Positions 4,110-20,081 are shown, counted from the first letter of the stretch. The stretch is 64,000 nt of DNA from an uncultured Alphaproteobacteria bacterium (GCA_902553945.1 CACDMT010000003.1:9332-73331), one strand, 5' to 3'. Notes: generated from the sequence alone by a model not told the origin. Program-made: numbers and translations.

Positions 4110-4737
4110 ATTTCATTCTCCAACTATCTGGATCTGATAAAAATTCCTTTAAATTTAATATATCTGTTTCACTAAAAATATTTTCCATTTCTATATACCT
4201 AATAATATCTTTCCATGTACATAAAGAGTGTATTGAAACATCTAATTTAGATAGCTCAGATGATTTAAAATTAAAAATATCATAGTAAAATATTACAAAG
4301 ATATCTTTTACTTTTAATCCCGCTTCTCTTAAAGCGTTAACAAATATTATTTTGCTTCCTCCATCAGTTGCTAAATCCTCTATAAGAATGGTATTTTGAT
4401 TTTTTGTAAAATTACCCTCTATTTGTTTATTTATACCAAATCCTTTGGGTTTTTTTCTAATATATATCATAGGTTTCTCTAATTTATCAGACAAGTAAGA
4501 AGCATATGGTATACCAGCTGTTTCACCTCCTGCTAAAAGATCAAAATTTAATTTATTATTTTTAAAGTAATCTATAGCCTTACTAAATATAACCTCTCTT
4601 TCTTTTACATAAGAAATAATTCTTCTACAATCAACGTATACTGGACTTTTCAATCCAGATGTAAGAGTGAAAGGATTATTAAATGAGAAGTTAACAGATT
4701 TTATATCAATTAATATTTTAGCAATCTCTATCGACAT
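4102..4737 (-). CDS. pyrE: orotate phosphoribosyltransferase
   Basis: 211 aa. PRPP-binding loop ILIEDLATDGGSKI and the upstream GGETAGIPYA and IRKKPKGFG...IEG segments are typical of PyrE. Confidence 0.88.
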   Translation of the reverse strand: MSIEIAKILIDIKSVNFSFNNPFTLTSGLKSPVYVDCRRIISYVKEREVIFSKAIDYFKNNKLNFDLLAGGETAGIPYASYLSDKLEKPMIYIRKKPKGFGINKQIEGNFTKNQNTILIEDLATDGGSKIIFVNALREAGLKVKDIFVIFYYDIFNFKSSELSKLDVSIHSLCTWKDIIRYIEMENIFSETDILNLKEFLSDPDSWRMKYG

Positions 4738-4739
4738 TT

Positions 4740-5216
4740 TTAAGTGATTTGGGATATGTGCTCTTCAGAAAAGTTTCCCGGTACAATCATAATAGGTACC
4801 CTCAAATTTGTTATTTCATTACTTACTAAAGATGTAATAATAGGACCTGGATCTTTACTTTTTTCATCACTTTTGGCAGCAAGAACTAAAACATTAATAT
4901 TTTTTTCCTCGTCAATTAATTTTTTTAATTCTGAAATTGTTTCTCCTTCTCTTAGGGATAAAGCGGGAAGTTCACCTGTTTTATTTTTTACAAATGATGC
5001 TGCCTCTTTTAGTTTTTTTTCAGCTTCATCTCTTGCTTCATTTTTCATTATTTCTGACACCCCTTGAGTTGTTAAAACATCAATTGGTTCAACAAATGTT
5101 GCTATAATAATTTTTCTTCCAGTTTTTTTTGATCTAGCACAAGCATATTCTAGAGCAATATGCACTTCACTTGAATTATCTGCTACAACTAAAATATATC
5201 TATCATCTGACATCAT
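4740..5216 (-). CDS. universal stress protein (UspA family)
   Basis: 158 aa. ILVVADNSSE...AL.YA N-terminus and a C-terminal G......S.......VPIMIVPG ATP-binding-like segment. Confidence 0.8.
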   Translation of the reverse strand: MMSDDRYILVVADNSSEVHIALEYACARSKKTGRKIIIATFVEPIDVLTTQGVSEIMKNEARDEAEKKLKEAASFVKNKTGELPALSLREGETISELKKLIDEEKNINVLVLAAKSDEKSKDPGPIITSLVSNEITNLRVPIMIVPGNFSEEHISQIT

Positions 5217-5956
5217 AATCTCCTAAACAATGTAGCTGCAATAAGGCCCGAAAGTATTGCAAAAATTATCGTAAAGAAACCATATGCTGCAGAATTACTA
5301 TTTGCAAATTTATATATATCGTTACCTATACCTGATTTTTCAATTTTAATTTTTTTATCTTCTTTGCTAATAATTGTTTTATTTCTAACATGATAAACCG
5401 AAACTGTATAATCACCAGGTGTTGTTGTAGCTGGAAAATAAACACTTGTTTGAAATAATTTTTTTTTAAATTTCTTCATTTCAAATTCATTATAAAAAAG
5501 CTTTTCTTTTTTAATTCTAATAAAGTTTTCTATCCATATATCTTGATCATTTTCAAATGCAAAATTTTGATTATAGTTTTTATTTCTTAAAATTCCATCA
5601 AAACTAAGATTTTCCTGAATTAACTTTGATTCTGGTAAAATATTTTCAATTTTGTTAGTAGATGCTAAAAAAAATATATTAGGAACATTACTGTATGTTA
5701 TTCGTTTGCTATTAAACCAAACACCAAAGTATCTATCTTTTTTTTGTATTTTTAACTTTTTGTTTGGTCCTCTAATTGCTAAAATTGTATCATGATCATC
5801 TTCCAATAATCCAAAAATAATAATTTCTTTTCCATCGAAATTAGTTTCAATCTTGATTTTATCCTGTGATAAATCAAAATATGTTTCTTGTGAATATGCA
5901 TAAAAAGTAACAAAACTTGCTATAAAAAAAATTTTAATAAAAACTATTTTTTTCAT
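5213..5956 (-). CDS. alphaproteobacterial signal-peptide/C-terminal-TM protein of unknown function (Alph_Pro_TM-like)
   Basis: Start placed at MKKIVFIKIFFIASFVTFYAYS (signal-peptide-like), one nt after the stop of the upstream gene. It has a single C-terminal TM helix (AAYGFFTIIFAILSGLIAATLF). The family assignment is from memory of the ~250-270 aa alphaproteobacteria-restricted family. Confidence 0.6.
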   Translation of the reverse strand: MKKIVFIKIFFIASFVTFYAYSQETYFDLSQDKIKIETNFDGKEIIIFGLLEDDHDTILAIRGPNKKLKIQKKDRYFGVWFNSKRITYSNVPNIFFLASTNKIENILPESKLIQENLSFDGILRNKNYNQNFAFENDQDIWIENFIRIKKEKLFYNEFEMKKFKKKLFQTSVYFPATTTPGDYTVSVYHVRNKTIISKEDKKIKIEKSGIGNDIYKFANSNSAAYGFFTIIFAILSGLIAATLFRRL

Positions 5957-5957
5957 T

Positions 5958-6893
5958 TTAATTTTTGTTTCCATAATAAAGTCCGACAACATGTTTTGAT
6001 TGGATAAAAAATAAATATCTTTCAATAATCATACCTATCAAAGCTAAAACAAATACAATAATCATTGATATTTTTATAATAAATGGATCGGTCACTAAAG
6101 AAGAGTATTGGTTAATCATATAAATAGGTGTTATGAATGATAAAACACAAAAAACTATTCTAAGTAAATTGCTATTTTGTATGCGAATTGTATTTATCAT
6201 CTCTGTAGTTAAATAGTTTTTACCAGTATGTGGACCTTCAAAGAAAGTAATACCATTACTTTTAATACCAATGGCAGTTTCAATATTGGTATTAGATTTT
6301 TTTCGAACAGATATCCAATAAATAATCTTCGAAAGAAAATTTAATAAAATAATTATGTAAATAAATTTTTCAAATAAATTTAAATTATAGTTAAAGTAAA
6401 AATTTAATGAATATACAAATAACGACCCAAGTGTAATTCCATTTAATATATATATTGGTGTTACCAAGGGATTATTCCATGATGGAATCGTTTTTAATGA
6501 AGCATACATTTGACCTGTACAAAAAATAGTAATAATTGAAAAAAAACTTGTTAAAATTAATAATAAAATATATCCGCTTATATTTATTATCCAAAAGTAG
6601 TAAAATAAAATCATTGGAATGAAGGTAATTACCGCAGCTAAACCTTCTCTAGATAACCATGAAGTTTTCCATTGGCTAAATGCTCTCCATGCTCTTTCAG
6701 GATGACCTAAGTGAAGTGTAGAGCTTAATAACCCAGTTACTATCATAAGAAAACTTGCTAATGATAAGAATAACTTATATTCAAGATTGTATGAAATCTC
6801 TACAAATAATACATTAAATAATAGACCTATAAATATTCCATATCCTGTACCTGATATAACGGTAAAAAAAATAATTGATTTACTCGGATGCAC
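5958..6893 (-). CDS. soeC: DmsC/NrfD-like membrane anchor subunit of Mo-oxidoreductase (SoeC-like)
   Basis: 311 aa with about 8 hydrophobic helices. The N-terminus MHPSKSIIFFTVISGTGYG is typical of DmsC-type anchors. It overlaps the Fe-S subunit gene by 14 nt. Confidence 0.6.
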   Translation of the reverse strand: MHPSKSIIFFTVISGTGYGIFIGLLFNVLFVEISYNLEYKLFLSLASFLMIVTGLLSSTLHLGHPERAWRAFSQWKTSWLSREGLAAVITFIPMILFYYFWIINISGYILLLILTSFFSIITIFCTGQMYASLKTIPSWNNPLVTPIYILNGITLGSLFVYSLNFYFNYNLNLFEKFIYIIILLNFLSKIIYWISVRKKSNTNIETAIGIKSNGITFFEGPHTGKNYLTTEMINTIRIQNSNLLRIVFCVLSFITPIYMINQYSSLVTDPFIIKISMIIVFVLALIGMIIERYLFFIQSKHVVGLYYGNKN

Positions 6894-7620
6894 CTTGTAC
6901 CTGCTCTATCCAATCTTCAAAATCTTGGTCTTCATCTTTTGATATAGGTTTTAATTCTTTATTTTTAAAAATATCTTTATTTAACTTTGGAGGTAAATAT
7001 TTATTAACTGGTTTACAATCTTGCTCTGGCATTAAATTGTAACCCTCTCTTTCAGAAACTAACTTGACAATTTCAGAATTTTCATCACCTAAGTCTCCAA
7101 AACTTCTTGCCCCTGTTGGACAGCTAGAAACACATGCTGGAACCCTTTCATTCTCTGGTAGATTTTCATTATAAATTTTATCAACACAAAGAGTACATTT
7201 TTTCATTACACCTGCAGTTTCATCATATTCCCTTGCTCCATATGGACAAGCCCATGAACAAAGCTTACACCCAATGCATGTTTCTGCATTTACTAAAACA
7301 ATACCATCTTCATCTCTTTTGTAAGAAGCTCCGGTTGGACATACACTTACACATGGAGCATCTTCACAATGCAAACAACTTTTAGGAAAGTGAACTGTTT
7401 TTGATCCTTTTACTTCTGTTTCTACTTCAAAAGTGTGAATTCTATTAAACCAAACACCAGTAGGATCATCTCCATAAGGTTCAACATCGTGCAAAGGAGA
7501 AGAATGACCCGAAGTGTTCCATTCTTTACAATTTACAGCACATGCATGACACCCAACACATATATCCAAATCAATAACTAGCCCTAATTTTTTATTAGTT
7601 TTTTTTGGTAGTTCAGTCAT
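6880..7620 (-). CDS. soeB: 4Fe-4S ferredoxin-type subunit of Mo-oxidoreductase (DmsB/SoeB-like)
   Basis: 246 aa. Four Cys clusters (CVGCHACAVNC, CLHCEDAPCVSVCP, CIGCKLCSWACP, CTLC...C.SSCP). Confidence 0.65.
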   Translation of the reverse strand: MTELPKKTNKKLGLVIDLDICVGCHACAVNCKEWNTSGHSSPLHDVEPYGDDPTGVWFNRIHTFEVETEVKGSKTVHFPKSCLHCEDAPCVSVCPTGASYKRDEDGIVLVNAETCIGCKLCSWACPYGAREYDETAGVMKKCTLCVDKIYNENLPENERVPACVSSCPTGARSFGDLGDENSEIVKLVSEREGYNLMPEQDCKPVNKYLPPKLNKDIFKNKELKPISKDEDQDFEDWIEQVQGASE

Positions 7621-7623
7621 AAT

Positions 7624-10545
7624 TTAATAATTTTTTTTATTTCCAATATATTCAAAATGTTTAGTTGATTGATTTTTGGAGTAAATTTTTTTTATTTGTT
7701 TTCCATAAGTATTTATCTCAATATTTTTTCTAGATTTATTTCTAAAAGTTTTAAAAGATGGATAAACCCTACCATCTATTTCATTTTCTTTACATTTATA
7801 TATATCTACTTTTAAATCATACCATGCTGCTTGACCTGTTATTGGATCCGAATTAGAATAATTATAACCATCTTCTCTTTTAGGCAAGAGATCAGGAATA
7901 ATATGATTTAATAGAAAGCCTTTTTCAGTTTCTGGAGAGTTAGGATCAAGGTTCCATGCTCCCTTTCTTTTTCCAATAGCATTCCATGTCCAAACAGTCA
8001 ATTTGTTGACTCCTTTCATTATTCTACATTGTACTTTTATTTTATTATAATAACTTTCTATCCATATCCAATCATTGTCTTTTAATTTATTTTTTTCTGC
8101 TATGTACTCACTAATATACAAATAATTTCTACTAGTAATTTGTCTTAACCATGCATTATGTGAACCCCAAGAATGATACATATGAGGTGGACGTTGAGTT
8201 ATAGCGTTTAGATTATATTTTTCTGGCTGAAAGTTTTTATCCTCTATCGGCGGATACCATTTAGGAATAGGTCTAAAATATTTTTTTATTCTAGTAGACA
8301 TATAATCCGGGGGTTTCTTTGAACCGTGACCCTCTGCAGCCAACCTAAATTTTTGCATTTCTTCACTATAAATTTGAAGAACAATTTGCTCTTTTTTTGC
8401 TATCCATCCCAATTCATATGCAAGGTCGATATATGATTTATTAGAAAATTTGTAATAACTTTGATCACTTGAAAATTCATGATTATGAAAACATCCATTT
8501 TTAATATATTCGTCTATTTGATTTGGATTAACTTTACCTTTTCCAAATGAATTTCCATTTCCTCTCCATCCTGCCAGCGGACCTATTCCAGGTTGTCTTT
8601 CATGATTAATTATATAGTCAATATATCCATTAGGAAATTTTGGAGTAAAATCATTATTAATAAATCCCGGTAAACCTAATCTTGCACCTAAATCAATCAA
8701 AACATCTTGAAATGGCCTGACATCTCTTTTTATCTCTAAAATTGGCTGTCTTATTGCATCTGCAGCTCCATTAGCTGAACTAATAGGTCTATCTAATAAA
8801 GAAATACAATCCCATCTTTCCAAGTAAGTAGAGTCTGGTAAAACAAGGTCTGCATATGGAACAGTTTCTGAATAATATGCATCTGAATAAATTATTTTTG
8901 GAATTTTATAATTTCCTGTATTCTTATCTTTATCAATAAGTTTTGCAATTGTTTCTTTTGTGTTCATTGCAGAGTTCCATGCCATATTTGCCATATACAT
9001 AAAGAGAACATCTATTTCATAAGGATCACCTTTCCACGCATTATTTATTACCATATGCATAAGACCATGAGCTGAAAGTGGATTTTCCCAACTAAATGCT
9101 TTATCAATTCTTATAGGTTTTTCATTTTCATCAGTAAGTAAATCTTCAGGAGAAGAAGGAAACCCTAAGGGCATGCCTTCATAGGAAGTATTTGGAATTG
9201 ATTTATGACCTGATGGTTTTGGACCTGGCACAACATGTTTTGGGTAAGGCGCCTTGTAACGAAAACCACCTGGCACATCTATTGATCCAATCAGCATTTG
9301 TAGTAAATGAATAAGTCTACAGGTATCAAACCCATTTGAATGTGCAGAAATTCCACGCATTGCATGCATTGAAACAGGTCTACCAATCATAGTATCATGC
9401 TTTTTTCCATTCAGGTCAGTCCACTCAATTGGAAGTTCAATTTCTTTTTCAAAAGCAGTTTCAGCTATTTCACTCGCTATTCTTTTTATAACATTTTCTT
9501 TTATATCTGTTTTACTCGAAACAATAGAAGGCTTGAAATTATCTTTTAAAAGTTCTTTTGCAATTAATTCAAATGCTGGCACTACATTTATACCATTAAA
9601 TTTATAACTTCCAAAAAAACTTGGTTTTTTATTTGTTTCAGAACTTTTTAATATTTTTTTTTTATTTTTACAAAAAATTAAAGTTTGGTTGTTTTCATCT
9701 CTAACAAATAAACCATGATTATTATTTCCAGGATTATTATAAACCAACCAATTAGAATTTGTATATCTCTCCAAATATTTCCAATCAATTTTATTTGCTT
9801 TTAATAATTCATAAATAATTGAATGTACAAGTAAGCCATCTGTTCCCGGTCTAACACCAAGCCATTCATCAGCTATTGCTGAGTAACCAGTTTTAACCGG
9901 ATTGATCGATACAAATTTCGTATCTTTTCGAGTTTTTAAATTACCTAAACCCATTTTAATTGGATTAGAATCATGATCTTCGGCACATCCAAATAAAAGT
10001 AAGTATTTAGTGTGATCCCAATCTACTTCTCCAAATTCCCAAAATGATCCTCCGATAGTATACATACCAGCAGCAGCCATATTAACAGAACAAAAACCAC
10101 CATGTGCCGCAAAATTACAAGTCCCAAATTTACTAGCCCACCATCCTGTAAGAGATTGACTTTGATCTCTTCCGGTAAAAAAAGCTAACTTTTTTGGATC
10201 TTTATTCCTTACCTCTGACAACCAAGTTGTCGCTATTTTTAGTGCTTCATCCCATTCGATTTCTTTAAAATTTCCATCACCTCTCTCACCAACTCTTAAT
10301 AAAGGCTTTGTTAGTTTTGCTGGAGAATTTTGTTGCATAATTCCAGCAGAACCTTTGGCACATAAAACTCCTTTATTAATTGGATGATCTTTATTTCCAT
10401 CTATATATCTAATTTTTCCATCTTTTAAATGAACATTAATTCCACATCTGCAAGCACACATGTAACAAGTAGTTTTTTTTATTTCATCACTTACTATAGG
10501 AGAAGTGTTGACTTCTTCCTTTTTTGTTTCAAAAGGATTGATCAT
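7624..10545 (-). CDS. soeA: molybdopterin (bis-PGD) oxidoreductase catalytic subunit without Tat signal, SoeA-like sulfite dehydrogenase candidate
   Basis: 973 aa. N-terminal CxxCxxxC...C [4Fe-4S] motif (CYMCACRCG...LCAKG). No twin-arginine leader (MINPFETKKEEVN...). The size and subunit trio match the cytoplasm-facing SoeABC described in Allochromatium vinosum and Ruegeria pomeroyi. Confidence 0.6.
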   Translation of the reverse strand: MINPFETKKEEVNTSPIVSDEIKKTTCYMCACRCGINVHLKDGKIRYIDGNKDHPINKGVLCAKGSAGIMQQNSPAKLTKPLLRVGERGDGNFKEIEWDEALKIATTWLSEVRNKDPKKLAFFTGRDQSQSLTGWWASKFGTCNFAAHGGFCSVNMAAAGMYTIGGSFWEFGEVDWDHTKYLLLFGCAEDHDSNPIKMGLGNLKTRKDTKFVSINPVKTGYSAIADEWLGVRPGTDGLLVHSIIYELLKANKIDWKYLERYTNSNWLVYNNPGNNNHGLFVRDENNQTLIFCKNKKKILKSSETNKKPSFFGSYKFNGINVVPAFELIAKELLKDNFKPSIVSSKTDIKENVIKRIASEIAETAFEKEIELPIEWTDLNGKKHDTMIGRPVSMHAMRGISAHSNGFDTCRLIHLLQMLIGSIDVPGGFRYKAPYPKHVVPGPKPSGHKSIPNTSYEGMPLGFPSSPEDLLTDENEKPIRIDKAFSWENPLSAHGLMHMVINNAWKGDPYEIDVLFMYMANMAWNSAMNTKETIAKLIDKDKNTGNYKIPKIIYSDAYYSETVPYADLVLPDSTYLERWDCISLLDRPISSANGAADAIRQPILEIKRDVRPFQDVLIDLGARLGLPGFINNDFTPKFPNGYIDYIINHERQPGIGPLAGWRGNGNSFGKGKVNPNQIDEYIKNGCFHNHEFSSDQSYYKFSNKSYIDLAYELGWIAKKEQIVLQIYSEEMQKFRLAAEGHGSKKPPDYMSTRIKKYFRPIPKWYPPIEDKNFQPEKYNLNAITQRPPHMYHSWGSHNAWLRQITSRNYLYISEYIAEKNKLKDNDWIWIESYYNKIKVQCRIMKGVNKLTVWTWNAIGKRKGAWNLDPNSPETEKGFLLNHIIPDLLPKREDGYNYSNSDPITGQAAWYDLKVDIYKCKENEIDGRVYPSFKTFRNKSRKNIEINTYGKQIKKIYSKNQSTKHFEYIGNKKNY

Positions 10546-11456
10546 AGAACCTGAGTAGAAAATAAATCATTAGGCTGTAAAACAAGATCAGTAAATATTT
10601 TAGCACAAACTGCTAATACTAATATCGCTAACAAGCCTCTAAGATATTCTGCTTTTAATTTAGCCCCAATTCTAACACCTATTTGAGCGCCAATAACTCC
10701 ACCAAGTATCATAAGTGCAGCAAGAACTATATCGACAGTTTGATTAAGATAAGCTTGAAAAAAAGTTGAATTTGCAGTTACAAAAATAATTTGAAATAAT
10801 GAAGTACCTACAACAACACTAGTAGGCATACCTAGTATATAAACCATTGCGGGTATAATAATAAAACCACCTCCCACGCCCATCATTGCTGAAAGTATGC
10901 CAACAATAAAACCAATTATAATTGGAGGTATTGCACTAATGTAAAGTTTTGATCTTCTAAACCTAACTTTAAATGGTAGACCATGTATCCAAGAATGTTG
11001 ATGTAATTTTGTTCTTATTGATGAAGTCGTCTTATAACTTTTTATTGTTGTTCTTGCACTTTCAAAAGCCATACTAAAACCAATTATTCCTAAAAACAAA
11101 ACAAATAAAATTTGAATAACTAAGTCTATTTGACCATAAGATCTAAGAATTTTAAATATATTTACTCCTATTGTGGAGCCAACTAAACCTCCGGCGAGTA
11201 AAAAAAATCCCATTTTAAAATCAACAGATTTTTTTCTCCAGTGGGCTATTACTCCTGAAACAGATGAGGCTAAAACATGTGGAGCCTCAGTTCCAACAGC
11301 AACAACCGGAGGTATTCCAAGGAATATTAATAAAGGAGTCATTAAAAATCCACCACCAACTCCAAATAATCCTGATAAAGCACCAACTGCCATACCGATA
11401 AATACAATAAGAAAAATATTAATATTCATTTCAGCTATAGGAAGATAAATGCTCAT
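10542..11456 (-). CDS. tauE: TauE/SafE-family sulfite/anion exporter
   Basis: 304 aa polytopic membrane protein. It carries the duplicated GxGGGxxxxPxL motif (GVGGGFLMTPLL, GVGGGFIIIPAM). 4-nt overlap with the start of the catalytic subunit gene. Confidence 0.75.
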   Translation of the reverse strand: MSIYLPIAEMNINIFLIVFIGMAVGALSGLFGVGGGFLMTPLLIFLGIPPVVAVGTEAPHVLASSVSGVIAHWRKKSVDFKMGFFLLAGGLVGSTIGVNIFKILRSYGQIDLVIQILFVLFLGIIGFSMAFESARTTIKSYKTTSSIRTKLHQHSWIHGLPFKVRFRRSKLYISAIPPIIIGFIVGILSAMMGVGGGFIIIPAMVYILGMPTSVVVGTSLFQIIFVTANSTFFQAYLNQTVDIVLAALMILGGVIGAQIGVRIGAKLKAEYLRGLLAILVLAVCAKIFTDLVLQPNDLFSTQVL

Positions 11457-11505: not shown

Positions 11506-12126
11506 TTAACCATTTAAGTGATCAAAACTCTCCGCTTTTTCCAAATCATTTGTTGTATTGATATTAAAAAAAGGATCTAAAATTTTGTAGTCAAAATCAA
11601 CATAATCAAAATTATGTTTTTCAACCCAATTCATTATTTTTCTATTTTTTTGACTTAATTCTTTTTCTAAACTATTTAATAAATTTACGTTCCACATTGA
11701 TATTACTGGATGAACCTTGTTATTTGATCTAGCAACTAGGATTTCAATATTTTGTTCAAGTTTATTACAAAATTTATCTAATAAATTCTCAGGCAAAAAG
11801 GGAGTGTCACTTGGTACTGTAAAAATCCATTCTTTATCTTTATATTTTTTTAAGCACCAGCTAATCGAACTATGTATACCTGCAAGAGGCCCTAAAAAAC
11901 CTTCTTTTTTATCTTTTATTATTGGCAATTTACTTTTTTGAAATTCCTCATGATTTTGATTGGCATTAATTAAAATTTCAATTTCATTTTTTTTTAATTT
12001 TTCTAATATTCTAATAAAAATACTTTTACCATTAATTTTTGAGAGAGTTTTAAAACCTCCCCCAAATCTTTTTGATTCTCCTCCAGCTAAAATAACAAAT
12101 ATTATTTTTTTTTTATTTATATTCAA
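11506..12126 (-). CDS. mobA: molybdenum cofactor guanylyltransferase
   Basis: 206 aa. N-terminal ILAGGESKRFGG nucleotide-binding motif and LGPLAGI segment typical of MobA. Confidence 0.8.
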   Translation of the reverse strand: MNINKKKIIFVILAGGESKRFGGGFKTLSKINGKSIFIRILEKLKKNEIEILINANQNHEEFQKSKLPIIKDKKEGFLGPLAGIHSSISWCLKKYKDKEWIFTVPSDTPFLPENLLDKFCNKLEQNIEILVARSNNKVHPVISMWNVNLLNSLEKELSQKNRKIMNWVEKHNFDYVDFDYKILDPFFNINTTNDLEKAESFDHLNG

Positions 12127-12931
12127 TTCTTTTTTCTCCAGCTAACACTATATATTTTTTTCCTTTAGCTCTTCCAATTAAGGTTAAATTAGATTTTTTA
12201 GCAAGTTCTACCCCCCAAGCTGTAAAACCTGATCTTGATATCAGAATTGGAATTCCCATCTTTATTGTTTTAATTACCATTTCACTTGTAAGTCTACCTG
12301 TTGTATAGAAAATTTTATTTGAAGTTCTTATTTTTTTTAAAAACATGTAACCAGCTATTTTATCTACCGCATTATGTCTTCCAACGTCTTCCATATATAT
12401 TAATGGTTTATTGTTATGTGTAATTGCACATCCGTGGATAGCACCTGCTTCTAAATATAAGCTTGGAGTTAAAGTTATTTTTTTTGAAATTTCATAAATC
12501 CATTTATGTTTGATTTTTATCTTATTTTTTAATTTAGTATTTTTAATTTCTTCATATATATCTCCAAAAACTGTTCCAATTGCACATCCACTAGTAGTAA
12601 TTTTCTTTTTCAATTTATTTTCATAGTTTGTTTTTCTTTTTGTGCGAACTACAACAATTTGTAATTCTTTATCAATTTCTATTTTCGAAATTTTATCATT
12701 ATTTTTTAACATATTTTGATTTAATAAATATCCAATTGCTAGAAATTTTGGATGATCTCCAATGGTCATTAATGTCACAATTTCTTGATTATTGAGAAAT
12801 ATTGTTAATGATTTTTCATTTATTACTTTTGTTCTTACTAATTTTGAATTTTCATCTAAGCCATTAAGCTTAGTAATGAGCGATTTATCATTTATATTAG
12901 GAGAAATTAAATATTTTTCTTTTTTTTTCAT
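12113..12931 (-). CDS. fdhD: formate dehydrogenase accessory sulfurtransferase FdhD
   Basis: 272 aa. GRHNAVDK motif (E. coli GRHVALDK). The Cys loop is TSGCAIG and the C-terminal part is SGF/A...A....NLTLIG. Confidence 0.85.
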   Translation of the reverse strand: MKKKEKYLISPNINDKSLITKLNGLDENSKLVRTKVINEKSLTIFLNNQEIVTLMTIGDHPKFLAIGYLLNQNMLKNNDKISKIEIDKELQIVVVRTKRKTNYENKLKKKITTSGCAIGTVFGDIYEEIKNTKLKNKIKIKHKWIYEISKKITLTPSLYLEAGAIHGCAITHNNKPLIYMEDVGRHNAVDKIAGYMFLKKIRTSNKIFYTTGRLTSEMVIKTIKMGIPILISRSGFTAWGVELAKKSNLTLIGRAKGKKYIVLAGEKRIEYK

Positions 12932-12957: not shown

Positions 12958-13650
12958 ATGAACATATTAGAAATTTTTATAAATTCTATACTATTAATTA
13001 TATCCTTTGATAGGGAATTATGGGATATTATAATTTTATCACTTTTCGTAAGTTTTACAGCACTTATAATTGCATCAATAATAGGTTTTCTATTGGGTTA
13101 TTTTTTAGCTTTATATAACTTTTATTTTAAAAAAATTATACTAGTTCTTTTAAATTCACTAATGGGCATCCCTCCAGTTGTGGTTGGTTTGATAGTTTAT
13201 TTTATTTTTGCTTCTGGAGGTCCTTTAGGTGTTTTGCAATTGCTATATACTCCAACTGCCATGATTATTGCACAAACTATAATTATTTTTCCAATTGTCA
13301 CATCTTTATCTCATGAAATATTTTTAAAAAACTGGTTAGAGTTTAGAGATCAAATACGATCACTTAACATTCCATTTTTAGGCTCTGTTAAACTACTTAT
13401 TAATCATAGTTATTTTCTTCTTATCACTACATTACTATCTGCATTTGGGCGTGCAATATCAGAAGTTGGAGCAGTTATGATAGTAGGAGGTAATATAGAT
13501 CATTATACTAGAGTAATGACCACTGCTATTTCGCTTGAAACGAGAATGGGAAATTTAGAATATGCAATGGCTTTGGGATTAGTATTAATTTCACTTACAA
13601 TAATTATATATTCTATAGTATATTTATTAAATAATAAAAAAATAAAATGA
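12958..13650 (+). CDS. ABC transporter permease, TupB-like (tungstate/oxyanion type), no partner ATPase or binding protein nearby
   Basis: 230 aa with 5-6 TM helices. FGRAISEVGAVMIVGGNIDHYTRVMTTAISLET matches my memory of the TupB permease signature. Assignment to tungstate is an inference. Confidence 0.6.
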   Translation: MNILEIFINSILLIISFDRELWDIIILSLFVSFTALIIASIIGFLLGYFLALYNFYFKKIILVLLNSLMGIPPVVVGLIVYFIFASGGPLGVLQLLYTPTAMIIAQTIIIFPIVTSLSHEIFLKNWLEFRDQIRSLNIPFLGSVKLLINHSYFLLITTLLSAFGRAISEVGAVMIVGGNIDHYTRVMTTAISLETRMGNLEYAMALGLVLISLTIIIYSIVYLLNNKKIK

Positions 13651-14129
13651 AAATAATTGGCATTGTTGGATGGAAGAATACTGGAAAAACATTTTTTGCA
13701 AGTGAAATTATAAAAAAACTTAGATCTCAAAATTATCGTGTTGCGTCAATTAAACATGCTCATCATGAATTTGATATCGACCATCCAAATACTGATAGTT
13801 ATATTCATAGAATATCAGGCTCATCCCAGGTAATAATAAGCTCTGCAAAAAGATGGGCTAAAATTAACGAAATAGAGAGTCAAAATGAAAAAAAATTAGA
13901 TGAATTAATTTCTGAATTATCAGAAACAGATATAGTTCTAGTTGAGGGGTATAAAAATGAAAATCATCCTAAAATTGAAGTAATAAATGAAAAAGAAAAA
14001 AATCATTTATATAAAAATATTAAAAATGTAATAGGAATAATATCTGATCATGATTTAGATACAGATTTAAAACAATTTAAAAAAAATGAAATTGATAAAA
14101 TTGTCAATTTTATATTGAATGAAATATAG
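13647..14129 (+). CDS. mobB: molybdopterin-guanine dinucleotide biosynthesis adaptor protein MobB
   Basis: 160 aa. P-loop GWKNTGKT, then IKHAHH.FDIDHPN.DSY and VLVEGYK, parallel to E. coli MobB. ATGA overlap with the permease gene. Confidence 0.88.
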   Translation: MKIIGIVGWKNTGKTFFASEIIKKLRSQNYRVASIKHAHHEFDIDHPNTDSYIHRISGSSQVIISSAKRWAKINEIESQNEKKLDELISELSETDIVLVEGYKNENHPKIEVINEKEKNHLYKNIKNVIGIISDHDLDTDLKQFKKNEIDKIVNFILNEI

Positions 14130-15343
14130 TGAATAAATTTCCTTTAACAAAAAAAGAAATAATTGCTTATTTTAATAAGCAAAAAAAACTTATTTCCTCT
14201 TCAGAAATTATAGACTTAAGTAATTCAAATGGAAGAATATTAGCTGAAGATTTAATAAGTCAAATTAATCTTCCTCCATTTAACAATTCTGCAGTTGATG
14301 GATATGCATTAATAAAGAAAGACTTAAATCTAAAGAAAATTTTTACTTGTACAAGAAGAGTTGCTGCAGGTGATAATAAAAAAATTATTATTAAGCCTGG
14401 TGAGGCTGTAAGAGTTTTTACTGGCGCTAGAATGCCTTCAAATTCTTCTACAGTTGTAATGCAAGAAAATGTAATAATAGAAGGAAAAAATATTAGACTT
14501 TTAAAAACACCTCTTTTCGGGGAAAACTATAGATTAAAAGGGGAGGACATTAAAAAAAATAAAAAAATTTTACTCAAAGGGACAAAAATTAATCAACAGA
14601 ATCTTAATTTAATTGCGGCTGCAGGAATTAGAAAAATAAAAGTTTACAAAAAAATAAAGATAGGTTTTTTTACAAGTGGAAATGAATTAAGAAGACCAAC
14701 CAAAAGATTAAAAAATTCAGAAATAAATAATTCTAACTATTATGCTCTAAATGGATTACTAGATAAAAATTATATAACAAAAAAATATTTAGGAAATTTA
14801 AGAGATAATTTAAAATTTGTTAAAAATAATCTCATCAGTGCATCTAAAAAGTTTAATATTATTATTACAGCTGGAGGAGCTTCAGTTGGTGATGAAGATC
14901 ATTTAATAAATGCATTATCTAGTTTGGGTAAGATATACTTTTGGAGAGCTGCTATAAAACCAGGTAGACCATTAGCTTTTGGAAAAATAAAAAAATGTTA
15001 CGTTATATGTTTGCCTGGAAACCCTGTTTCTGTGCAGCTTTTGTATGCTATGTTAATTACACCTTTAATATTAAAACTTTGCGGAGGTTTTTTAAAATTA
15101 CCTAATTCAAGCAAAATATATACAAACTTTAATATGAAGAAAAAGACAAAAAGAATGGAATGGTTAAGAGTTACTAAAACTATGAAAAATAAAAAAGATA
15201 TTGCAAATAAATATCCTAAACAAGGGTCAGGAATGATTAGTTCAATTTCATACTCAAGTGGTATAATTGAGATTGGTGAAGAAGTTTCTTCAATCAAAAA
15301 AGGAGATGTTTTTGAATTTTATGACTTTGAGAATTTATTTTAG
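14129..15343 (+). CDS. moeA: molybdopterin molybdotransferase MoeA
   Basis: GTG start, 404 aa. SAVDGYA, TGA.MP, GGASVGD.D and PGNPVS motifs of MoeA/gephyrin E domain. Confidence 0.9.
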   Translation: MNKFPLTKKEIIAYFNKQKKLISSSEIIDLSNSNGRILAEDLISQINLPPFNNSAVDGYALIKKDLNLKKIFTCTRRVAAGDNKKIIIKPGEAVRVFTGARMPSNSSTVVMQENVIIEGKNIRLLKTPLFGENYRLKGEDIKKNKKILLKGTKINQQNLNLIAAAGIRKIKVYKKIKIGFFTSGNELRRPTKRLKNSEINNSNYYALNGLLDKNYITKKYLGNLRDNLKFVKNNLISASKKFNIIITAGGASVGDEDHLINALSSLGKIYFWRAAIKPGRPLAFGKIKKCYVICLPGNPVSVQLLYAMLITPLILKLCGGFLKLPNSSKIYTNFNMKKKTKRMEWLRVTKTMKNKKDIANKYPKQGSGMISSISYSSGIIEIGEEVSSIKKGDVFEFYDFENLF

Positions 15344-15591
15344 TTCTGTATTTTAAACTTATATTTAATTAAAATTTTATCTTCATTCTTCTCACAGCTT
15401 AAATACTCGAATCCTGATTGATTGCAATAATGCTGAAAATCTACTTCCGCCAAAGGGTCTGTAGCGATAACTTTAATTGTGATGTCTTTCGTCAACTCAG
15501 ATGCAAGTTTTCTTGCTTTAAGCACAGGAATAGGACATTCTGTACCACTTGTATCAAGCACTATTTCATCTTTTTCAACTGAATCTTTCAT
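15340..15591 (-). CDS. TusA/SirA-family sulfur carrier protein
   Basis: 83 aa. LDTSGTECPIPVLKARK contains the CPxP active-site motif of TusA. Confidence 0.8.
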   Translation of the reverse strand: MKDSVEKDEIVLDTSGTECPIPVLKARKLASELTKDITIKVIATDPLAEVDFQHYCNQSGFEYLSCEKNEDKILIKYKFKIQN

Positions 15592-15631
15592 GACTTTCTG
15601 ATACTAAATATATATTATTATAGTAATTGGA

Positions 15632-17335
15632 ATGGATAAATTTGTTTCTCAAACAGAAACTTCTCTAAAAAAGAAGAAAAGACGGTGGTCTACTAAAGGA
15701 AGACAGCTAGAAGATAATTATTTAGAAGAAGTATCAAAGTTATTTGGTAAAACTGACTTTAAGCGTGATGAACTCATAGAATATTTGCATGTATTGCAGG
15801 ATAATTTTGGAGTGCTTTATGACAAGCACCTAGTTGCTCTATCTACATTAATTAATATACCATTTTCTGAAATATATGAAGTAGCGACATTTTATGCTCA
15901 TTTCAACATAGTTAAAGATAATAAAACTTTTAATCCTATTAAGGTTGTAAGAGTCTGCGAGAGTTTGACTTGTGAATTATTAGGAGCTCAAAGATTATTA
16001 AAAGATATAAAAAGTTTAGAGAATAAAAATATTAAAGTAGTTCCTGGTCCTTGTATGGGGAGATGTCAAGTTGCACCTACTGTATGTGTTGGAAAAAATT
16101 ATGTTGATAATGCAAATCTAGACAGTGTAAAAAAAATTATTGACGAAAAAGATTTTGAACCAGTAATTCCAAATTATATTGATCTCAAAAAATATAAAAA
16201 TGAAGGTGGATATATTATTGCAAAAAAAATTAAAGATGGTGAAATAACTAAAGAAGAAGTTTTAAAATCATTAAATGAGAGTGGATTAAAAGGCAAAGGA
16301 GGAGCTGGATTTCCTACTGGAAAAAAATGGGAAATTGTTTCAAGTTACAAAGGAAAAAAATTTGTTGCTGTTAATGGAGATGAAGGTGAGCCAGGTACTT
16401 TTAAAGATCGCACATATCTAGAGAGCGATCCTCATAGATTTTTAGAAGGCGCTTTAATAGCTTCTTATATTATAAATGCTAATAAGGTTTATATTTATAT
16501 GAGAGATGAATATCCTGCTGTTATTAAAATTCTAAATGACGAGATTAAAAAACTAGAAGAAGAAAAGCTTATCGAAAAAAATTATCTTATAATTAGAAGA
16601 GGGGCTGGAGCTTATATTTGTGGTGAAGAGTCTGCAATGATTGAGAGCATTGAGGGAAAACGAGGTTTACCACGGCACAGACCGCCATACGTTGCAGAAG
16701 TAGGGCTATTTGGATGTCCTACATTAACAAATAATTTAGAAACTCTTTTTTGGGTTAGGGATATTATTGAAAAAGGTTCTGAATGGTTTGCTGGTCAGGG
16801 CATTGATGGGAAAAAAGGATTTCATAGTTTTTCAGTTTCAGGAAGAGTAAAAGATCCTGGTGTTAAGGTTGCACCAGCTGGTATTACAATTCAAAAATTA
16901 ATTGATGATTTTTGTGGTGGTATGGCAGATGGCCACAAATTTAAAGGTTATCTTCCAGGTGGTGCATCAGGTGGTATACTACCCGCATCAATGAATAATA
17001 TTCCATTAGATTATGGATCAAAAGAACTCTCAGATGCAGGGTGTTTTTTAGGATCAGCTGCTATAGTGGTTTTATCGGATAAAGATAGTATGAAAGATGT
17101 AGCTCTTAATCTATTAAAATTCTTTGAAGAGGAAAGTTGTGGTCAATGCACCCCATGTAGATCTGGTACAGAAAAAACAGTAAAACTCATGAAAGAAAAA
17201 AAATGGAATAAAGAAAAATTAGCAGATTTATCTGAGGTAATGTCACAAGCTTCAATATGTGGTTTAGGACAAGCTGCTACTAATCCTTTAAATTCAGTAT
17301 TAAAATATTTTGAAAATGAAATTACTTATGAATGA
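15632..17335 (+). CDS. fdsB: NAD-dependent formate dehydrogenase beta subunit (fused NuoE-like and NuoF-like diaphorase)
   Basis: 567 aa. The N-terminal third has the NuoE-type 2Fe-2S pattern (VCESLTC...GPCMGRCQVAP). The remainder is NuoF-like (GLKGKGGAGFPTGKKW, NGDEGEPGTFKDR, ESCGQCTPCR). Confidence 0.85.
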   Translation: MDKFVSQTETSLKKKKRRWSTKGRQLEDNYLEEVSKLFGKTDFKRDELIEYLHVLQDNFGVLYDKHLVALSTLINIPFSEIYEVATFYAHFNIVKDNKTFNPIKVVRVCESLTCELLGAQRLLKDIKSLENKNIKVVPGPCMGRCQVAPTVCVGKNYVDNANLDSVKKIIDEKDFEPVIPNYIDLKKYKNEGGYIIAKKIKDGEITKEEVLKSLNESGLKGKGGAGFPTGKKWEIVSSYKGKKFVAVNGDEGEPGTFKDRTYLESDPHRFLEGALIASYIINANKVYIYMRDEYPAVIKILNDEIKKLEEEKLIEKNYLIIRRGAGAYICGEESAMIESIEGKRGLPRHRPPYVAEVGLFGCPTLTNNLETLFWVRDIIEKGSEWFAGQGIDGKKGFHSFSVSGRVKDPGVKVAPAGITIQKLIDDFCGGMADGHKFKGYLPGGASGGILPASMNNIPLDYGSKELSDAGCFLGSAAIVVLSDKDSMKDVALNLLKFFEEESCGQCTPCRSGTEKTVKLMKEKKWNKEKLADLSEVMSQASICGLGQAATNPLNSVLKYFENEITYE

Positions 17336-20081
17336 AAAAAAAATTAAATTTTATTTAAACGATAAAAAAGTTGAAGCCGATTATAATGAAACAATTTGGC
17401 AAGTATCAAATAGATTGGGTGTTGAAATTCCCCACCTCTGTTATTCTGATAAGCCTGGATATAGAGCTGACGGCAATTGTAGAGCTTGTATGGTTGAAAT
17501 TGAGGGAGAACGTATTTTAGCTGCATCATGCATTAGAAAACCATCAGAAAATATGAAGGTAAGTACTTCATCTGATAAAGCAAAAAAATCTAGAGAACTA
17601 GTTTTTGAATTACTTCTCTCTGATCAGCCCAAAAAAGACATTGCACATGATAGTAATTCTGCTTTTTGGAATTGGATAGATAAAGTTGAAGTAAAAGAAA
17701 GTAGATTTCCAAAAAAGGCTCCCTGCCAATCAGACATTTCTCATCCAAGTATGGCAGTAAACTTAGATGCATGCATACAATGTAATCTTTGTGTGAGAGC
17801 ATGCAGAGAGGTTCAAGTAAATGATGTTATTGGCATGGCTTATAGAGGAGAAAATTCTAAAATAGTTTTTGATTTTGATGACCCTATGGGCGATAGCACA
17901 TGTGTTGCTTGTGGAGAATGTGTTCAAGCATGTCCCACAGGCGCTCTTATGCCTTCATCAGTAGTTGATAAAAATGGTGTTGGGCATAGCAATGTAGATG
18001 ATAAAGTTAATAGTGTCTGCCCATATTGCGGTGTTGGATGTCAAATTGAATACAATGTTAAAGATAATAAAATAAAATATGTAAATGGTATTGATGGTCC
18101 TGCAAATAAAAATAGACTTTGCGTAAAAGGAAGGTTTGGATTTGACTATGTAAATAATCCAGAAAGACTAACTAAACCATTAATAAGAATTCAAGATAAA
18201 GAAAAAGATTTACATCCAAGTATTAATTTTTCAAACATACACGAATATTTTAGAGAGTCTACTTGGGATGAAGCTTTGCAATATGCAGCTAACGGCTTTC
18301 TTGAATTGAAAAAGAAAAGAAATGGAAAGAGTAACTTAGCAGGATTTGGTTCTGCAAAATGTTCAAACGAAGAGGCTTACTTATTTCAAAAACTAATTAG
18401 AACTGGCTTTAATACCAATAATGTTGATCATTGTACTAGACTATGTCATGCATCTTCAGTAGCTGCTTTACTAGAAACAATAGGATCGGGCGCTGTAACT
18501 GCTCCATTTTATGAAGTAGAGCACTCAGAAGTAATTATTGTTATAGGAGCTAACCCTTCAGAAAACCATCCAGTTGCTGCTACTTTTTTTAAAAATGCAT
18601 CAAAAAAAGGTGCTAAACTTATTGTAATGGATCCCAGAGGACATTCTCTAAAAAAACATGCAACACATATGTTACAGTTCAAACCAGGAAAAGATGTAGC
18701 TTTATTAAATTCAATAATGAATGTTATTATTGAGGAAAACTTATTTAACTCTGAATATATTAAGAAACAAACTGAAGGCTTTGATAAATTAAGAAAACAT
18801 CTTTTAAACTATTCTCCAGAAATTATGCAGGATGAAACAGGAATAGATGCAGATTTAATTAGAGAAGTTGCTCGTTTGTATGCAACTACAAACAAAGGTA
18901 TAATTTTTTGGGGAATGGGTATTTCACAACATGTTCATGGAACAGATAATGCTAGATGCTTAATATCATTAGCTTTAATGACTGGTAATGTGGGAAAAAG
19001 AGGCTCAGGATTACATCCATTAAGAGGTCAAAATAATGTTCAAGGAGCTTCTGATGCTGGTTTAATACCGATGATGTATCCTGATTATCAATTAGTTGAA
19101 AAAAATAATAACAAAGATTTTTTTGAAAAATTTTGGAATACATCGCTTGACGAAAAAAAGGGTTTAACAGTTGTTGAAATTATGGACGCTATCCATGAAG
19201 ATATTATTAAAGGAATGTATATTCTTGGAGAAAACCCAGCTATGTCAGACCCTGATTTAAATCATGCGAGAGAAGCTTTACAAAAGTTAGATCATTTGGT
19301 TGTACAAGATATATTTTTAACTGAAACAGCTACATACGCTGATGTTATTTTTCCTGCATCAGCATGGCCTGAAAAGAATGGAACAGTAACAAACACTAAT
19401 AGACAAGTACAAATGGGAAGAAAGGCAATTAATTCTCCCGGCAAAGCAAAAGAAGATTGGTGGATAACCAATGAACTTGCAAAAAGGATGGGTTTAAATT
19501 GGAACTATAATCATCCAAAAGATATATATGAAGAAATGTCTAGAACAATGCCATCACTTAACAATATTTCTTGGGATAGGTTAGATAAAGAAAATTCAGT
19601 TACTTATCCAAGTAAATCTCCAACAACACCTGGTGATGAAATAGTTTTTGGAGATAAATTTCCAAACGAAACTGGTAAAGGTAAATTTATTCCCGCAAGT
19701 GTGACTCCTCCAAATGAAATGCCTGATAAGGAATTTGGTATGATTTTAACTACTGGGAGACAATTAGAGCATTGGCATACTGGAGCAATGACAAGAAAAG
19801 CTTCAAATCTTGACGCTATAGAACCAGAGCCCTCTGTTTCTATATCACCAAATGATATATTAAAAAATAATATGAAGCCTGGGGATAAAATAAAAGTAAC
19901 AACTAGAAGAGGTTCTTTAAATATAAAAATTAGACAAGATAGGGCTATTCCAGAAGGAGTTATATTTATTCCTTTTTGTTATAATGAAGCTGCTGCTAAC
20001 CTCTTAACAAATCCAGCATTGGACCCAGTTGGAAAGATTCCTGAATTTAAATATTGTGCCGCAAAAATTGAGAAGCTATAA
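17328..20081 (+). CDS. fdsA: NAD-dependent formate dehydrogenase alpha subunit (Mo/W-bisPGD, Cys type)
   Basis: Start taken at ATG 17328 (MNEKKIKFYLND), an 8-nt overlap with fdsB; TTG 17310 and ATG 17316 are alternatives. NuoG-like 2Fe-2S/4Fe-4S N-terminus, CPYCGVGC cluster, and active-site DHCTRLCHASS with TGT Cys at 18444-18446 where selenoenzymes have Sec. Confidence 0.9.
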   Translation: MNEKKIKFYLNDKKVEADYNETIWQVSNRLGVEIPHLCYSDKPGYRADGNCRACMVEIEGERILAASCIRKPSENMKVSTSSDKAKKSRELVFELLLSDQPKKDIAHDSNSAFWNWIDKVEVKESRFPKKAPCQSDISHPSMAVNLDACIQCNLCVRACREVQVNDVIGMAYRGENSKIVFDFDDPMGDSTCVACGECVQACPTGALMPSSVVDKNGVGHSNVDDKVNSVCPYCGVGCQIEYNVKDNKIKYVNGIDGPANKNRLCVKGRFGFDYVNNPERLTKPLIRIQDKEKDLHPSINFSNIHEYFRESTWDEALQYAANGFLELKKKRNGKSNLAGFGSAKCSNEEAYLFQKLIRTGFNTNNVDHCTRLCHASSVAALLETIGSGAVTAPFYEVEHSEVIIVIGANPSENHPVAATFFKNASKKGAKLIVMDPRGHSLKKHATHMLQFKPGKDVALLNSIMNVIIEENLFNSEYIKKQTEGFDKLRKHLLNYSPEIMQDETGIDADLIREVARLYATTNKGIIFWGMGISQHVHGTDNARCLISLALMTGNVGKRGSGLHPLRGQNNVQGASDAGLIPMMYPDYQLVEKNNNKDFFEKFWNTSLDEKKGLTVVEIMDAIHEDIIKGMYILGENPAMSDPDLNHAREALQKLDHLVVQDIFLTETATYADVIFPASAWPEKNGTVTNTNRQVQMGRKAINSPGKAKEDWWITNELAKRMGLNWNYNHPKDIYEEMSRTMPSLNNISWDRLDKENSVTYPSKSPTTPGDEIVFGDKFPNETGKGKFIPASVTPPNEMPDKEFGMILTTGRQLEHWHTGAMTRKASNLDAIEPEPSVSISPNDILKNNMKPGDKIKVTTRRGSLNIKIRQDRAIPEGVIFIPFCYNEAAANLLTNPALDPVGKIPEFKYCAAKIEKL

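Follow-up and report, generated by a model that had tools for sequence, protein, structure and literature searches.

The 64,000-nucleotide window analysed here, a stretch of the genome of an uncultured Alphaproteobacteria bacterium (GCA_902553945.1, CACDMT010000003.1:9332-73331), encodes a three-subunit molybdenum enzyme immediately downstream of a TauE/SafE-family (TSUP) permease gene. We propose that the enzyme is a SoeABC-type sulfite:quinone oxidoreductase for cytoplasmic sulfite and that its genes are an old accessory module inserted between the permease gene and the gene of a TIGR02186 protein. The probability of this reading was put at roughly 0.78. SoeABC itself is already known, and it is the host and the population picture that are new. 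As far as checked, the new elements were the patchy, nearly exclusive distributions of SoeABC and AprBA in the genus of the host, a chromosomal slot shared by the two, and a half-anchor gene retained in genomes that lack the enzyme. The host lineage was probably the HIMB59/AEGEAN-169 group. Positions are given within the window, and G000 denotes the genome that holds it; other genomes, contigs, and loci carry working numbers with G, C, and L.

The first-pass annotation of this stretch had described four genes with a 4-nt overlap between permease and catalytic subunit. The list of open reading frames (ORFs), the Pfam matches, and the junction sequence agreed with this layout, including sizes and coordinates (Table 1). 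The permease stop and the soeA start share ATGA, and the junction reads gttctATGAtcaatcc. This gene spacing suggested that the permease gene and soeABC are co-transcribed. A promoter and terminator scan gave counts equal to those of shuffled controls and was uninformative in this AT-rich DNA, which has ~30% G+C across the window, and an Rfam scan of the window found only tRNAs, all located elsewhere than the operon.

The features of the three subunits were consistent with an enzyme facing the cytoplasm. SoeA starts with MINPFETKKEEVNTSPIVSDEIKKTT, followed by the FS0 cluster motif C27-x2-C30-x3-C34 ... C62. Motif and hydropathy inspection found no twin arginine (RR) in the first 60 residues and no hydrophobic segment, so the claimed lack of a twin-arginine translocation (Tat) leader on this subunit holds. 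In-frame stops were located 7-8 codons 5' of the soeA ATG; therefore, a longer N-terminus with a Tat leader from another start codon is impossible. Cys152, within HGGFCSVN, was aligned with a cysteine of Thermus PsrA that we take to be the Mo ligand of PsrA. SoeB, which had been called a four-cluster ferredoxin subunit, indeed contained 16 cysteines in four [4Fe-4S] motifs; it starts with MTELPKKTNKK and is leaderless. The third subunit matched the DmsC family, as claimed. For this anchor, a hydropathy script gave seven distinct hydrophobic segments with transmembrane helix (TM) 5 merged into a long loop, and ~8 TM helices were read by hand. On the 8-TM hand reading, a simple, hand-counted positive-inside rule gave 15 lysine and arginine residues inside (N-terminus, loops 2-3, 4-5, and 6-7, and C-terminus) against 3 outside. 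SoeC was predicted from this count to have its N-terminus inside, with the HLGHPERAW loop and the docking face of the first four-helix bundle in the cytoplasm. A SoeC anchor turned the opposite way to PsrC and DmsC, which places the quinone-site bundle and the iron-sulfur docking loop on the N-side, was proposed previously (PMC8076601). Since no Tat or Sec signal was found by inspection, SoeA and SoeB were predicted to stay on the cytoplasmic side.

Family placement was determined by searches, model scores, and a tree. The window SoeA was 59-64% identical over 94-100% of its length to hundreds of alpha- and gammaproteobacterial proteins, and some of these had been named 'sulfite dehydrogenase (quinone) subunit SoeA' by the Joint Genome Institute (JGI). 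A plasmid collection contained 13 full-length matches at ~59% identity, with all others at ≤28%. The NCBIfam models for PhsA, DmsA/YnfE, TtrA, ArrA, NapA, FdnG, and NarG all scored far under their cut-offs; PhsA was the best (bits against cut-off: PhsA 210/694, DmsA/YnfE 120/778, TtrA 104/1750, ArrA 74/1600). The tree was built from 31 family members, PhsA, DmsA, two other annotated Mo enzymes, and the FdsA of G000. The window SoeA was placed inside a tight family clade, separate from PhsA, DmsA, and the two other Mo enzymes, and it was set apart from TtrA and ArrA by the model scores. The family was further surveyed in the 80 best loci of one genome-contig scan. In ~70 family loci, the gene after soeA was 55-78% identical to SoeB and the next one 32-41% identical to SoeC. 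The longest possible N-terminal extension before FS0 had a median of 31 residues in 79 family loci, and a Tat-like motif was present in one of them. On these sequence comparisons, the Tat-less state is the norm of the SoeA family, and the enzyme belongs to the known SoeABC family.

The window enzyme was compared with the SoeABC systems of Allochromatium vinosum, Aquifex aeolicus, and Ruegeria pomeroyi. The A. vinosum enzyme is reportedly known from genetics (Dahl and colleagues in 2013), and the A. aeolicus enzyme is said to have been purified (Boughanemi and colleagues in 2020). The A-B-C gene order and the subunit sizes of ~970, 245, and 310 residues were shared with these systems. So were the FS0 motif, the cysteine at the Mo-ligand position, the four-cluster B subunit, an NrfD/DmsC-type anchor without haem, the lack of a Tat or Sec signal, and the predicted cytoplasmic orientation. 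Both in the lineage and in the family, a link to Xsc-type sulfonate degradation was a further common feature. In contrast, the host of the window is a low-GC (~30%) oligotroph of the sea with a streamlined genome (~1.4-1.6 Mb), and its operon lies between a TSUP gene and its TIGR02186 partner, is ATGA-coupled, and is patchy in the genus. Thermus thermophilus PsrABC (PDB 2VPW-2VPZ) has the same three-subunit layout of complex iron-sulfur molybdoenzymes and an NrfD-type anchor of two four-helix bundles. However, PsrABC is Tat-exported and faces the periplasm.

The sources of sulfite were traced through xsc, which encodes sulfoacetaldehyde acetyltransferase, the enzyme of the step that releases sulfite. 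The gene was located ≤8 kb from soeA in 8 of the 80 family loci. An annotated Azospirillum brasilense plasmid had the order pta-like gene (a bifunctional enoyl-CoA hydratase/phosphate acetyltransferase), transporter, aldehyde dehydrogenase, CoA ligase, three soe homologues, and xsc. This arrangement mirrors the soeABC-pta-xsc locus of R. pomeroyi, in which SoeA was more abundant in growth on 2,3-dihydroxypropane-1-sulfonate (PMC13335735). In the genus of the host, Xsc was found above the curated cut-off in 85/105 genomes, including 6/6 of those that were ≥90% complete. In G032, which is 90% complete and has a SoeA 92% identical to that of the window, the xsc cluster contained alanine dehydrogenase (Ald), a class-III aminotransferase (Tpa-like), phosphate acetyltransferase (Pta), and an EamA transporter; two unrelated genes stood before xsc. 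This is the classical gene set from taurine via sulfoacetaldehyde to acetyl phosphate and sulfite. A CuyA-like lyase (TIGR01275) was not found in G000, G032, G058, G060, and G079, and sulfate adenylyltransferase (sat, TIGR00339) was not found in G000, G032, G058, G060, and G104, all but two of these genomes being <90% complete; SuyAB, HpsN, TauXY, SsuD, rDsr, and sHdr were outside the search. Of the five genomes searched for sat, G104 alone carries aprA. The suggestion that the organism generates sulfite from organosulfonates stood for the lineage, in the form of xsc with the Tpa-like, Ald, and Pta genes; in the incomplete G000 itself, xsc was not found. The assignment to SoeABC, made from architecture only, was strengthened by the JGI-named family, the distance from the PhsA, DmsA, TtrA, and ArrA models, the predicted inversion of the anchor, and the xsc neighbours.

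We suggest the following mechanism. Taurine:pyruvate aminotransferase and then Xsc would supply cytoplasmic sulfite, with taurine as the probable main source. SoeA, with Mo-bis-molybdopterin guanine dinucleotide (bisMGD) and one [4Fe-4S] cluster, would oxidise sulfite to sulfate at the cytoplasmic face. From FS0 the two electrons would travel along the four clusters of SoeB and reach quinone at the first four-helix bundle of the inverted SoeC. SoeABC would in this way detoxify sulfite and conserve energy. Sulfate or surplus sulfite would leave the cell by an anion exporter, and the TSUP-TIGR02186 pair is the obvious candidate for this role. Genus members without SoeABC or AprBA (~80%) would presumably export their sulfite unoxidised.

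The distribution of the oxidising enzymes was then compared across the genus. SoeA was found in 11/105 genus genomes (G000 and 10 others) and in 0/82 genomes from the rest of the order. AprA was also found in 10/105 genus genomes, and the two sets had only G005 in common, a 170-contig assembly with 3% contamination. AprBA, the adenosine 5'-phosphosulfate (APS) reductase, has the same proposed job as SoeABC, the oxidation of cytoplasmic sulfite, and a similar frequency of ~10% of the genus genomes. It differs in consisting of unrelated proteins with chemistry that is dependent on adenosine monophosphate and proceeds via APS. The AprBA route of sulfite oxidation has been noted in SAR11. Almost never present with SoeABC in the genus, AprBA occupied the same chromosomal slot in G104. 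There, aprBA was located between the TSUP gene and the half-anchor gene described below, accompanied by an APS-kinase-like gene and two others that gave no Pfam match. In the other apr-carrying genomes G002, G033, G035, G036, and G057, aprA instead shared a contig with xsc, at a distance of 7-10 kb.

An alternative main role for the enzyme was also considered. SoeABC might mainly serve a lithoheterotrophic oxidation of inorganic sulfur with soxYZCDB and fccB, instead of the disposal of organosulfonate sulfite. Contig C18 of G000 carries a sulfur-oxidation cluster with an azurin-like protein, thioredoxin, SoxY, SoxZ, SoxC, SoxD, SoxB, and FccB. SoxB was found in 13/105 genus genomes, and 10 of these 13 also have SoeA or AprA (Fisher's exact p = 1.4e-6, relatedness ignored). 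However, SoxB was not detected in six soe-carrying genomes, though these are incomplete. In addition, Sox chemistry is in general periplasmic and yields sulfate, not free cytoplasmic sulfite. We consider this alternative unlikely as the main role of the enzyme, and both readings could hold together. The sulfur-oxidising package is present in a minority of the genus, and most members have Xsc alone. SoxB was 92-96% identical among its 13 genomes, against 50-90% for the core genes around the soe locus. This identity suggested that the sox island spread recently within the genus.

Next to the soe genes, the permease and the TIGR02186 protein were found to form a module of their own. The permease match to PF01925 covered residues 18-286 and far exceeded the cut-off of 32.6 bits. 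The permease was 81-87% identical in soe-less genus genomes and 44-61% identical in other Alphaproteobacteria. A TauE-like gene directly adjoins the TIGR02186 gene in four other alphaproteobacterial lineages (L017, L035, L059, L064), in G116 and G176 of the sister family, and in a further three alphaproteobacterial genomes of small size. PF09608, the Pfam family of the TIGR02186 protein, was present in 267/401 sampled Alphaproteobacteria; one of these genomes (G415) is unpublished, and the conclusion is independent of it. A universal stress protein gene (usp) comes after the pair in L059 and G194 and also lies next to it in L132. Therefore, the pair is a module of general occurrence, and soeABC separates its two genes in this genus. 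The soe-less genus genomes were fully syntenic from fdsA past pyrE. The module was also located ≤8 kb from soeABC in 5/73 loci in different orders (in L010, the TIGR02186 gene alone), while ~0.2 loci would be expected by chance. The association of TSUP-TIGR02186 with sulfite metabolism thus looks real.

The TIGR02186 protein itself consists of a signal-like helix at the N-terminus, two beta-sandwich domains, and a TM helix at the C-terminus. Its AlphaFold model had a mean predicted local distance difference test score of 86. A Foldseek search against the PDB gave generic beta-sandwich matches only, with TM-scores of 0.2-0.3, and an ESM Atlas search gave matches to its own family only. The literature search found no mention of TIGR02186 or PF09608. 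A fused TSUP-TIGR02186 protein, which frames of 556-600 residues had indicated, was rejected. The 579-residue ORF of L059 contained the TIGR02186 domain only, at residues 356-578, and the long frames are stop-poor high-GC DNA.

Several of these results weighed against the proposed reading. Orthology to the studied SoeA proteins was argued from third-party naming, family coherence, and gene context; Alvin_2491, SPO3559, and A. aeolicus SoeA were not among the 80 best loci, the protein matches, or the plasmid matches. Xsc was not found in G000 (1.15 Mb, 58 contigs, 63% complete). The xsc-flanking genes, including uvrC, were likewise missing; since all other neighbours of xsc were absent with uvrC, the xsc region is unassembled there. 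About 80% of the genus has Xsc without SoeABC or AprBA, so taurine use does not require sulfite oxidation. The TSUP-TIGR02186 pair is far commoner than SoeABC, so it is no dedicated SoeABC partner.

The last point bears directly on the role of the permease. The first-pass annotation had taken the TauE-like protein for a sulfite exporter, with two fates of sulfite, oxidation by SoeABC or export, encoded on one transcript. The good Pfam match to TauE and the ATGA coupling to soeA speak for this. Most of the genus also has Xsc and the permease with no sulfite-oxidising enzyme, so an export route for sulfite is needed. However, the name TauE goes back to gene context in other bacteria, outside the TSUP-TIGR02186 subfamily. 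The TauE/SafE permeases of Cupriavidus necator and related sulfonate clusters share PF01925 and a sulfite-related gene context with the window permease. The window subfamily differs in always occurring with TIGR02186, and often with Usp, in Alphaproteobacteria, and in being present in most of the class whether or not sulfonate or sulfite genes occur. The pair is found in two thirds of Alphaproteobacteria irrespective of SoeABC and is equally conserved in soe-less relatives. Its coupling to soeA arose through insertion of soeABC between the TSUP and TIGR02186 genes. In addition, a cell that oxidises sulfite inside needs sulfate export, which fits equally well. A dedicated sulfite exporter, with two fates of sulfite on one transcript, is therefore doubtful as an account of this gene pair. 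The permease most likely exports the anionic product, sulfate, or surplus sulfite.

It is also conceivable, if somewhat less likely still, that the adjacency is meaningless because the TSUP/TIGR02186 junction is a permissive insertion site at which soeABC arrived by chance. The presence of soeABC in only 11/105 genus genomes with invariant flanks would be consistent with this, as would other cargo nearby, namely a PF03601 gene that separates mobA from the TSUP gene in G038, G079, and G090. However, all of the cargo is linked to sulfite or sulfate: SoeABC, AprBA in G104, and the PF03601 protein. The module also lies near soeABC in unrelated alphaproteobacterial orders more often than expected, as described above. 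The extra PF03601 (Cons_hypoth698) protein is a membrane protein of 364 residues, and its family presumably includes TauZ, which has been proposed to export sulfate.

A role as a reductase of polysulfide, thiosulfate, or tetrathionate, or as some other characterised member of the dimethyl sulfoxide reductase family, was very improbable: PhsA was the top curated model and Thermus PsrA the closest solved structure (E = 8e-32, mainly over the first 260 residues), but the scores were far under the cut-offs, identity to the tree outgroups was 24-27%, the outgroup PhsA, DmsA, and Citrobacter enzyme have RR leaders that the window SoeA cannot have, and the SoeC anchor was predicted by the hand count to be inverted.

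The history of the SoeABC insertion was read from the soe-less genomes of the genus. These genomes have a membrane ORF of 126-149 residues counted from its ATG, designated soeC', between the permease and TIGR02186 genes. Its ATG overlaps the permease stop in ATGA at both junctions checked (G038, G002). The product was homologous to the C-terminal half of SoeC from residue ~148 onward, corresponding to TMH5-8 (blastp E = 3e-11 and 1e-6). By tblastn, soeC' matched the genus's own SoeC with E values down to 1e-25, and its two outside matches were marginal, both to Robiginitomaculum SoeC (E = 7e-5 and 2e-3). In a genus-wide search, full-length SoeC was found in the 11 soe-carrying genomes and an open-frame soeC' in at least 62 of the 94 soe-less genomes. 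In the sister family, no soeC' ORF was found between permease and TIGR02186. Five aligned soeC' remnants share two deletions, having lost everything before TMH5 and the conserved cytoplasmic loop 6-7. A decaying pseudogene was rejected, as the frame is open over ~126-150 residues in so many genomes of ~30% GC and close pairs gave ratios of nonsynonymous to synonymous substitution rates of 0.12-0.30, calculated from few substitutions. By sequence comparison, most soe-less relatives appear to have deleted soeABC except for half of the anchor gene.

Insertion, deletion, and retention of a half-gene formed the simplest history. In a first step, soeABC would have been inserted between TSUP and TIGR02186 in the ancestor of the genus. 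An old deletion allele would then have lost soeA, soeB, and the quinone-binding half of soeC, and the leftover half would have been retained as a gene. In a tree built from eight flanking genes, soe-carrying and deleted genomes were interleaved, so alleles were exchanged by recombination or deletions recurred. We also considered that soeC' might be a working subunit, in which the C-terminal bundle of SoeC docks onto TSUP-TIGR02186 and the slot is an exchange site for SoeABC and AprBA. This is speculative and rather improbable. If true, sulfite oxidation and anion export would form one membrane assembly in soe-carrying cells, and dependence of the transporter on the SoeC bundle would have kept the bundle after soeA, soeB, and the quinone-binding half were lost.

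The population picture bears on the sulfur metabolism of an abundant, streamlined marine group. Nearly all genus members can make sulfite from taurine, while ~10% have SoeABC, ~10% AprBA, and ~12% soxYZCDB. The genus thus offers a natural experiment that could show if oligotrophs release sulfite or oxidise it for energy, a choice that bears on the marine sulfonate-to-sulfate flux. The locus is also a concrete handle on the unstudied TSUP-TIGR02186 module. The clade-specific HIMB59/AEGEAN-169 papers examined contained no mention of sulfite, taurine, xsc, soe, or molybdenum. One marine metatranscriptome contained short contigs 100% identical to soeC (6088-6235, 6328-6478) and soeA (7962-8193). 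They gave a weak hint of soe expression; the contigs bridge no gene junction, and the RNA library may contain DNA.

The operon is part of a string of ten co-directional genes: fdhD, mobA, TSUP, soeA, soeB, soeC, TIGR02186/Alph_Pro_TM, usp, pyrE, and a cytidylyltransferase-like gene. Within the string, genes overlap or are separated by gaps of ≤49 nt. The mobA gene shares 14 nt with fdhD and is separated from the TSUP gene downstream of it by 49 nt, and usp overlaps the TIGR02186 gene by 4 nt. The probable start of the TIGR02186 gene is the ATG 1 nt past the soeC stop, and its longest ORF extends to 6025. Adjoining on the opposite strand were moeA and further Mo-cofactor genes, a TusA-like gene, and fdsB-fdsA, encoding an NAD-type formate dehydrogenase. 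This neighbourhood was syntenic throughout the genus and in the sister family, consistent with an island of Mo-cofactor and formate-dehydrogenase genes that contains the SoeABC insertion. FdhD and MobA hold the same position in relatives with and without soe; therefore, they are not soe-specific. The FdhD-family gene probably serves the neighbouring formate dehydrogenase, and MobA makes the bisMGD cofactor required by SoeA and FdsA.

Table 1. Coordinates of the soe operon, its neighbours, and related features in other loci of the genus (window positions unless a locus is given; aa, amino acids)
Feature	Position	Strand	Match or remark
FdhD-family sulfurtransferase, first gene of the string	12113-12931	-	Pfam FdhD-NarQ 248 bits; TIGR00129 154 bits, above cut-off
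MobA, molybdenum cofactor guanylyltransferase	11506-12126	-	TIGR02665 173 bits, above cut-off
TauE/SafE-family (TSUP) permease, 304 aa	10542-11456	-	PF01925 181.9 bits
SoeA-type catalytic subunit, 973 aa	7624-10545	-	Molybdop_Fe4S4, Molybdopterin, Molydop_binding (Pfam)
SoeB-type ferredoxin subunit, 246 aa	6880-7620	-	Fer4_11 90 bits and other 4Fe-4S families (Pfam)
SoeC-type NrfD/DmsC anchor, 311 aa	5958-6893	-	DmsC PF04976 70.8 bits
TIGR02186/Alph_Pro_TM protein	5213-5956	-	PF09608 186.6 bits
Universal stress protein (usp)	4740-5216	-	PF00582 34 bits
Mo-cofactor genes including moeA, TusA-like gene, fdsB-fdsA	12958-20081 and 15340-15591	+ and -	
soeC'	L109:8961-9368	-	
soeC'	L111:9399-9806	-	
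soeC'	L110:10411-10818	+	
soeC'	L108 ~9056-9505	-	
soeC'	L119 ~6118-6495	+	
soeC'	L120 ~6466-6948	-	
soeC'	L118:9829-10242	+	
aprB, aprA, APS-kinase-like gene, two genes without Pfam matches	L118 (G104:C14) 5564-9690		
PF03601 gene	L109:10343-11437	-	same position in L110, L111
Damaged soeC and TIGR02186 genes	L121 (G044:C14) 7344-9029		
sox-fccB cluster	L133 (G000:C18:12000-25748), genes 4597-11249		SoxC 429 aa, SoxB 561 aa

Two further observations were made at soe loci. In G044, five internal stops interrupt soeC and the TIGR02186 gene is spread over three frames, whereas no damage is apparent in soeA and soeB; the defects could be ongoing decay or an error in the single-cell assembly. In addition, usp was located immediately upstream of soeA in the unrelated Rhodospirillaceae loci L029, L033, and L060 (~7364-7921).

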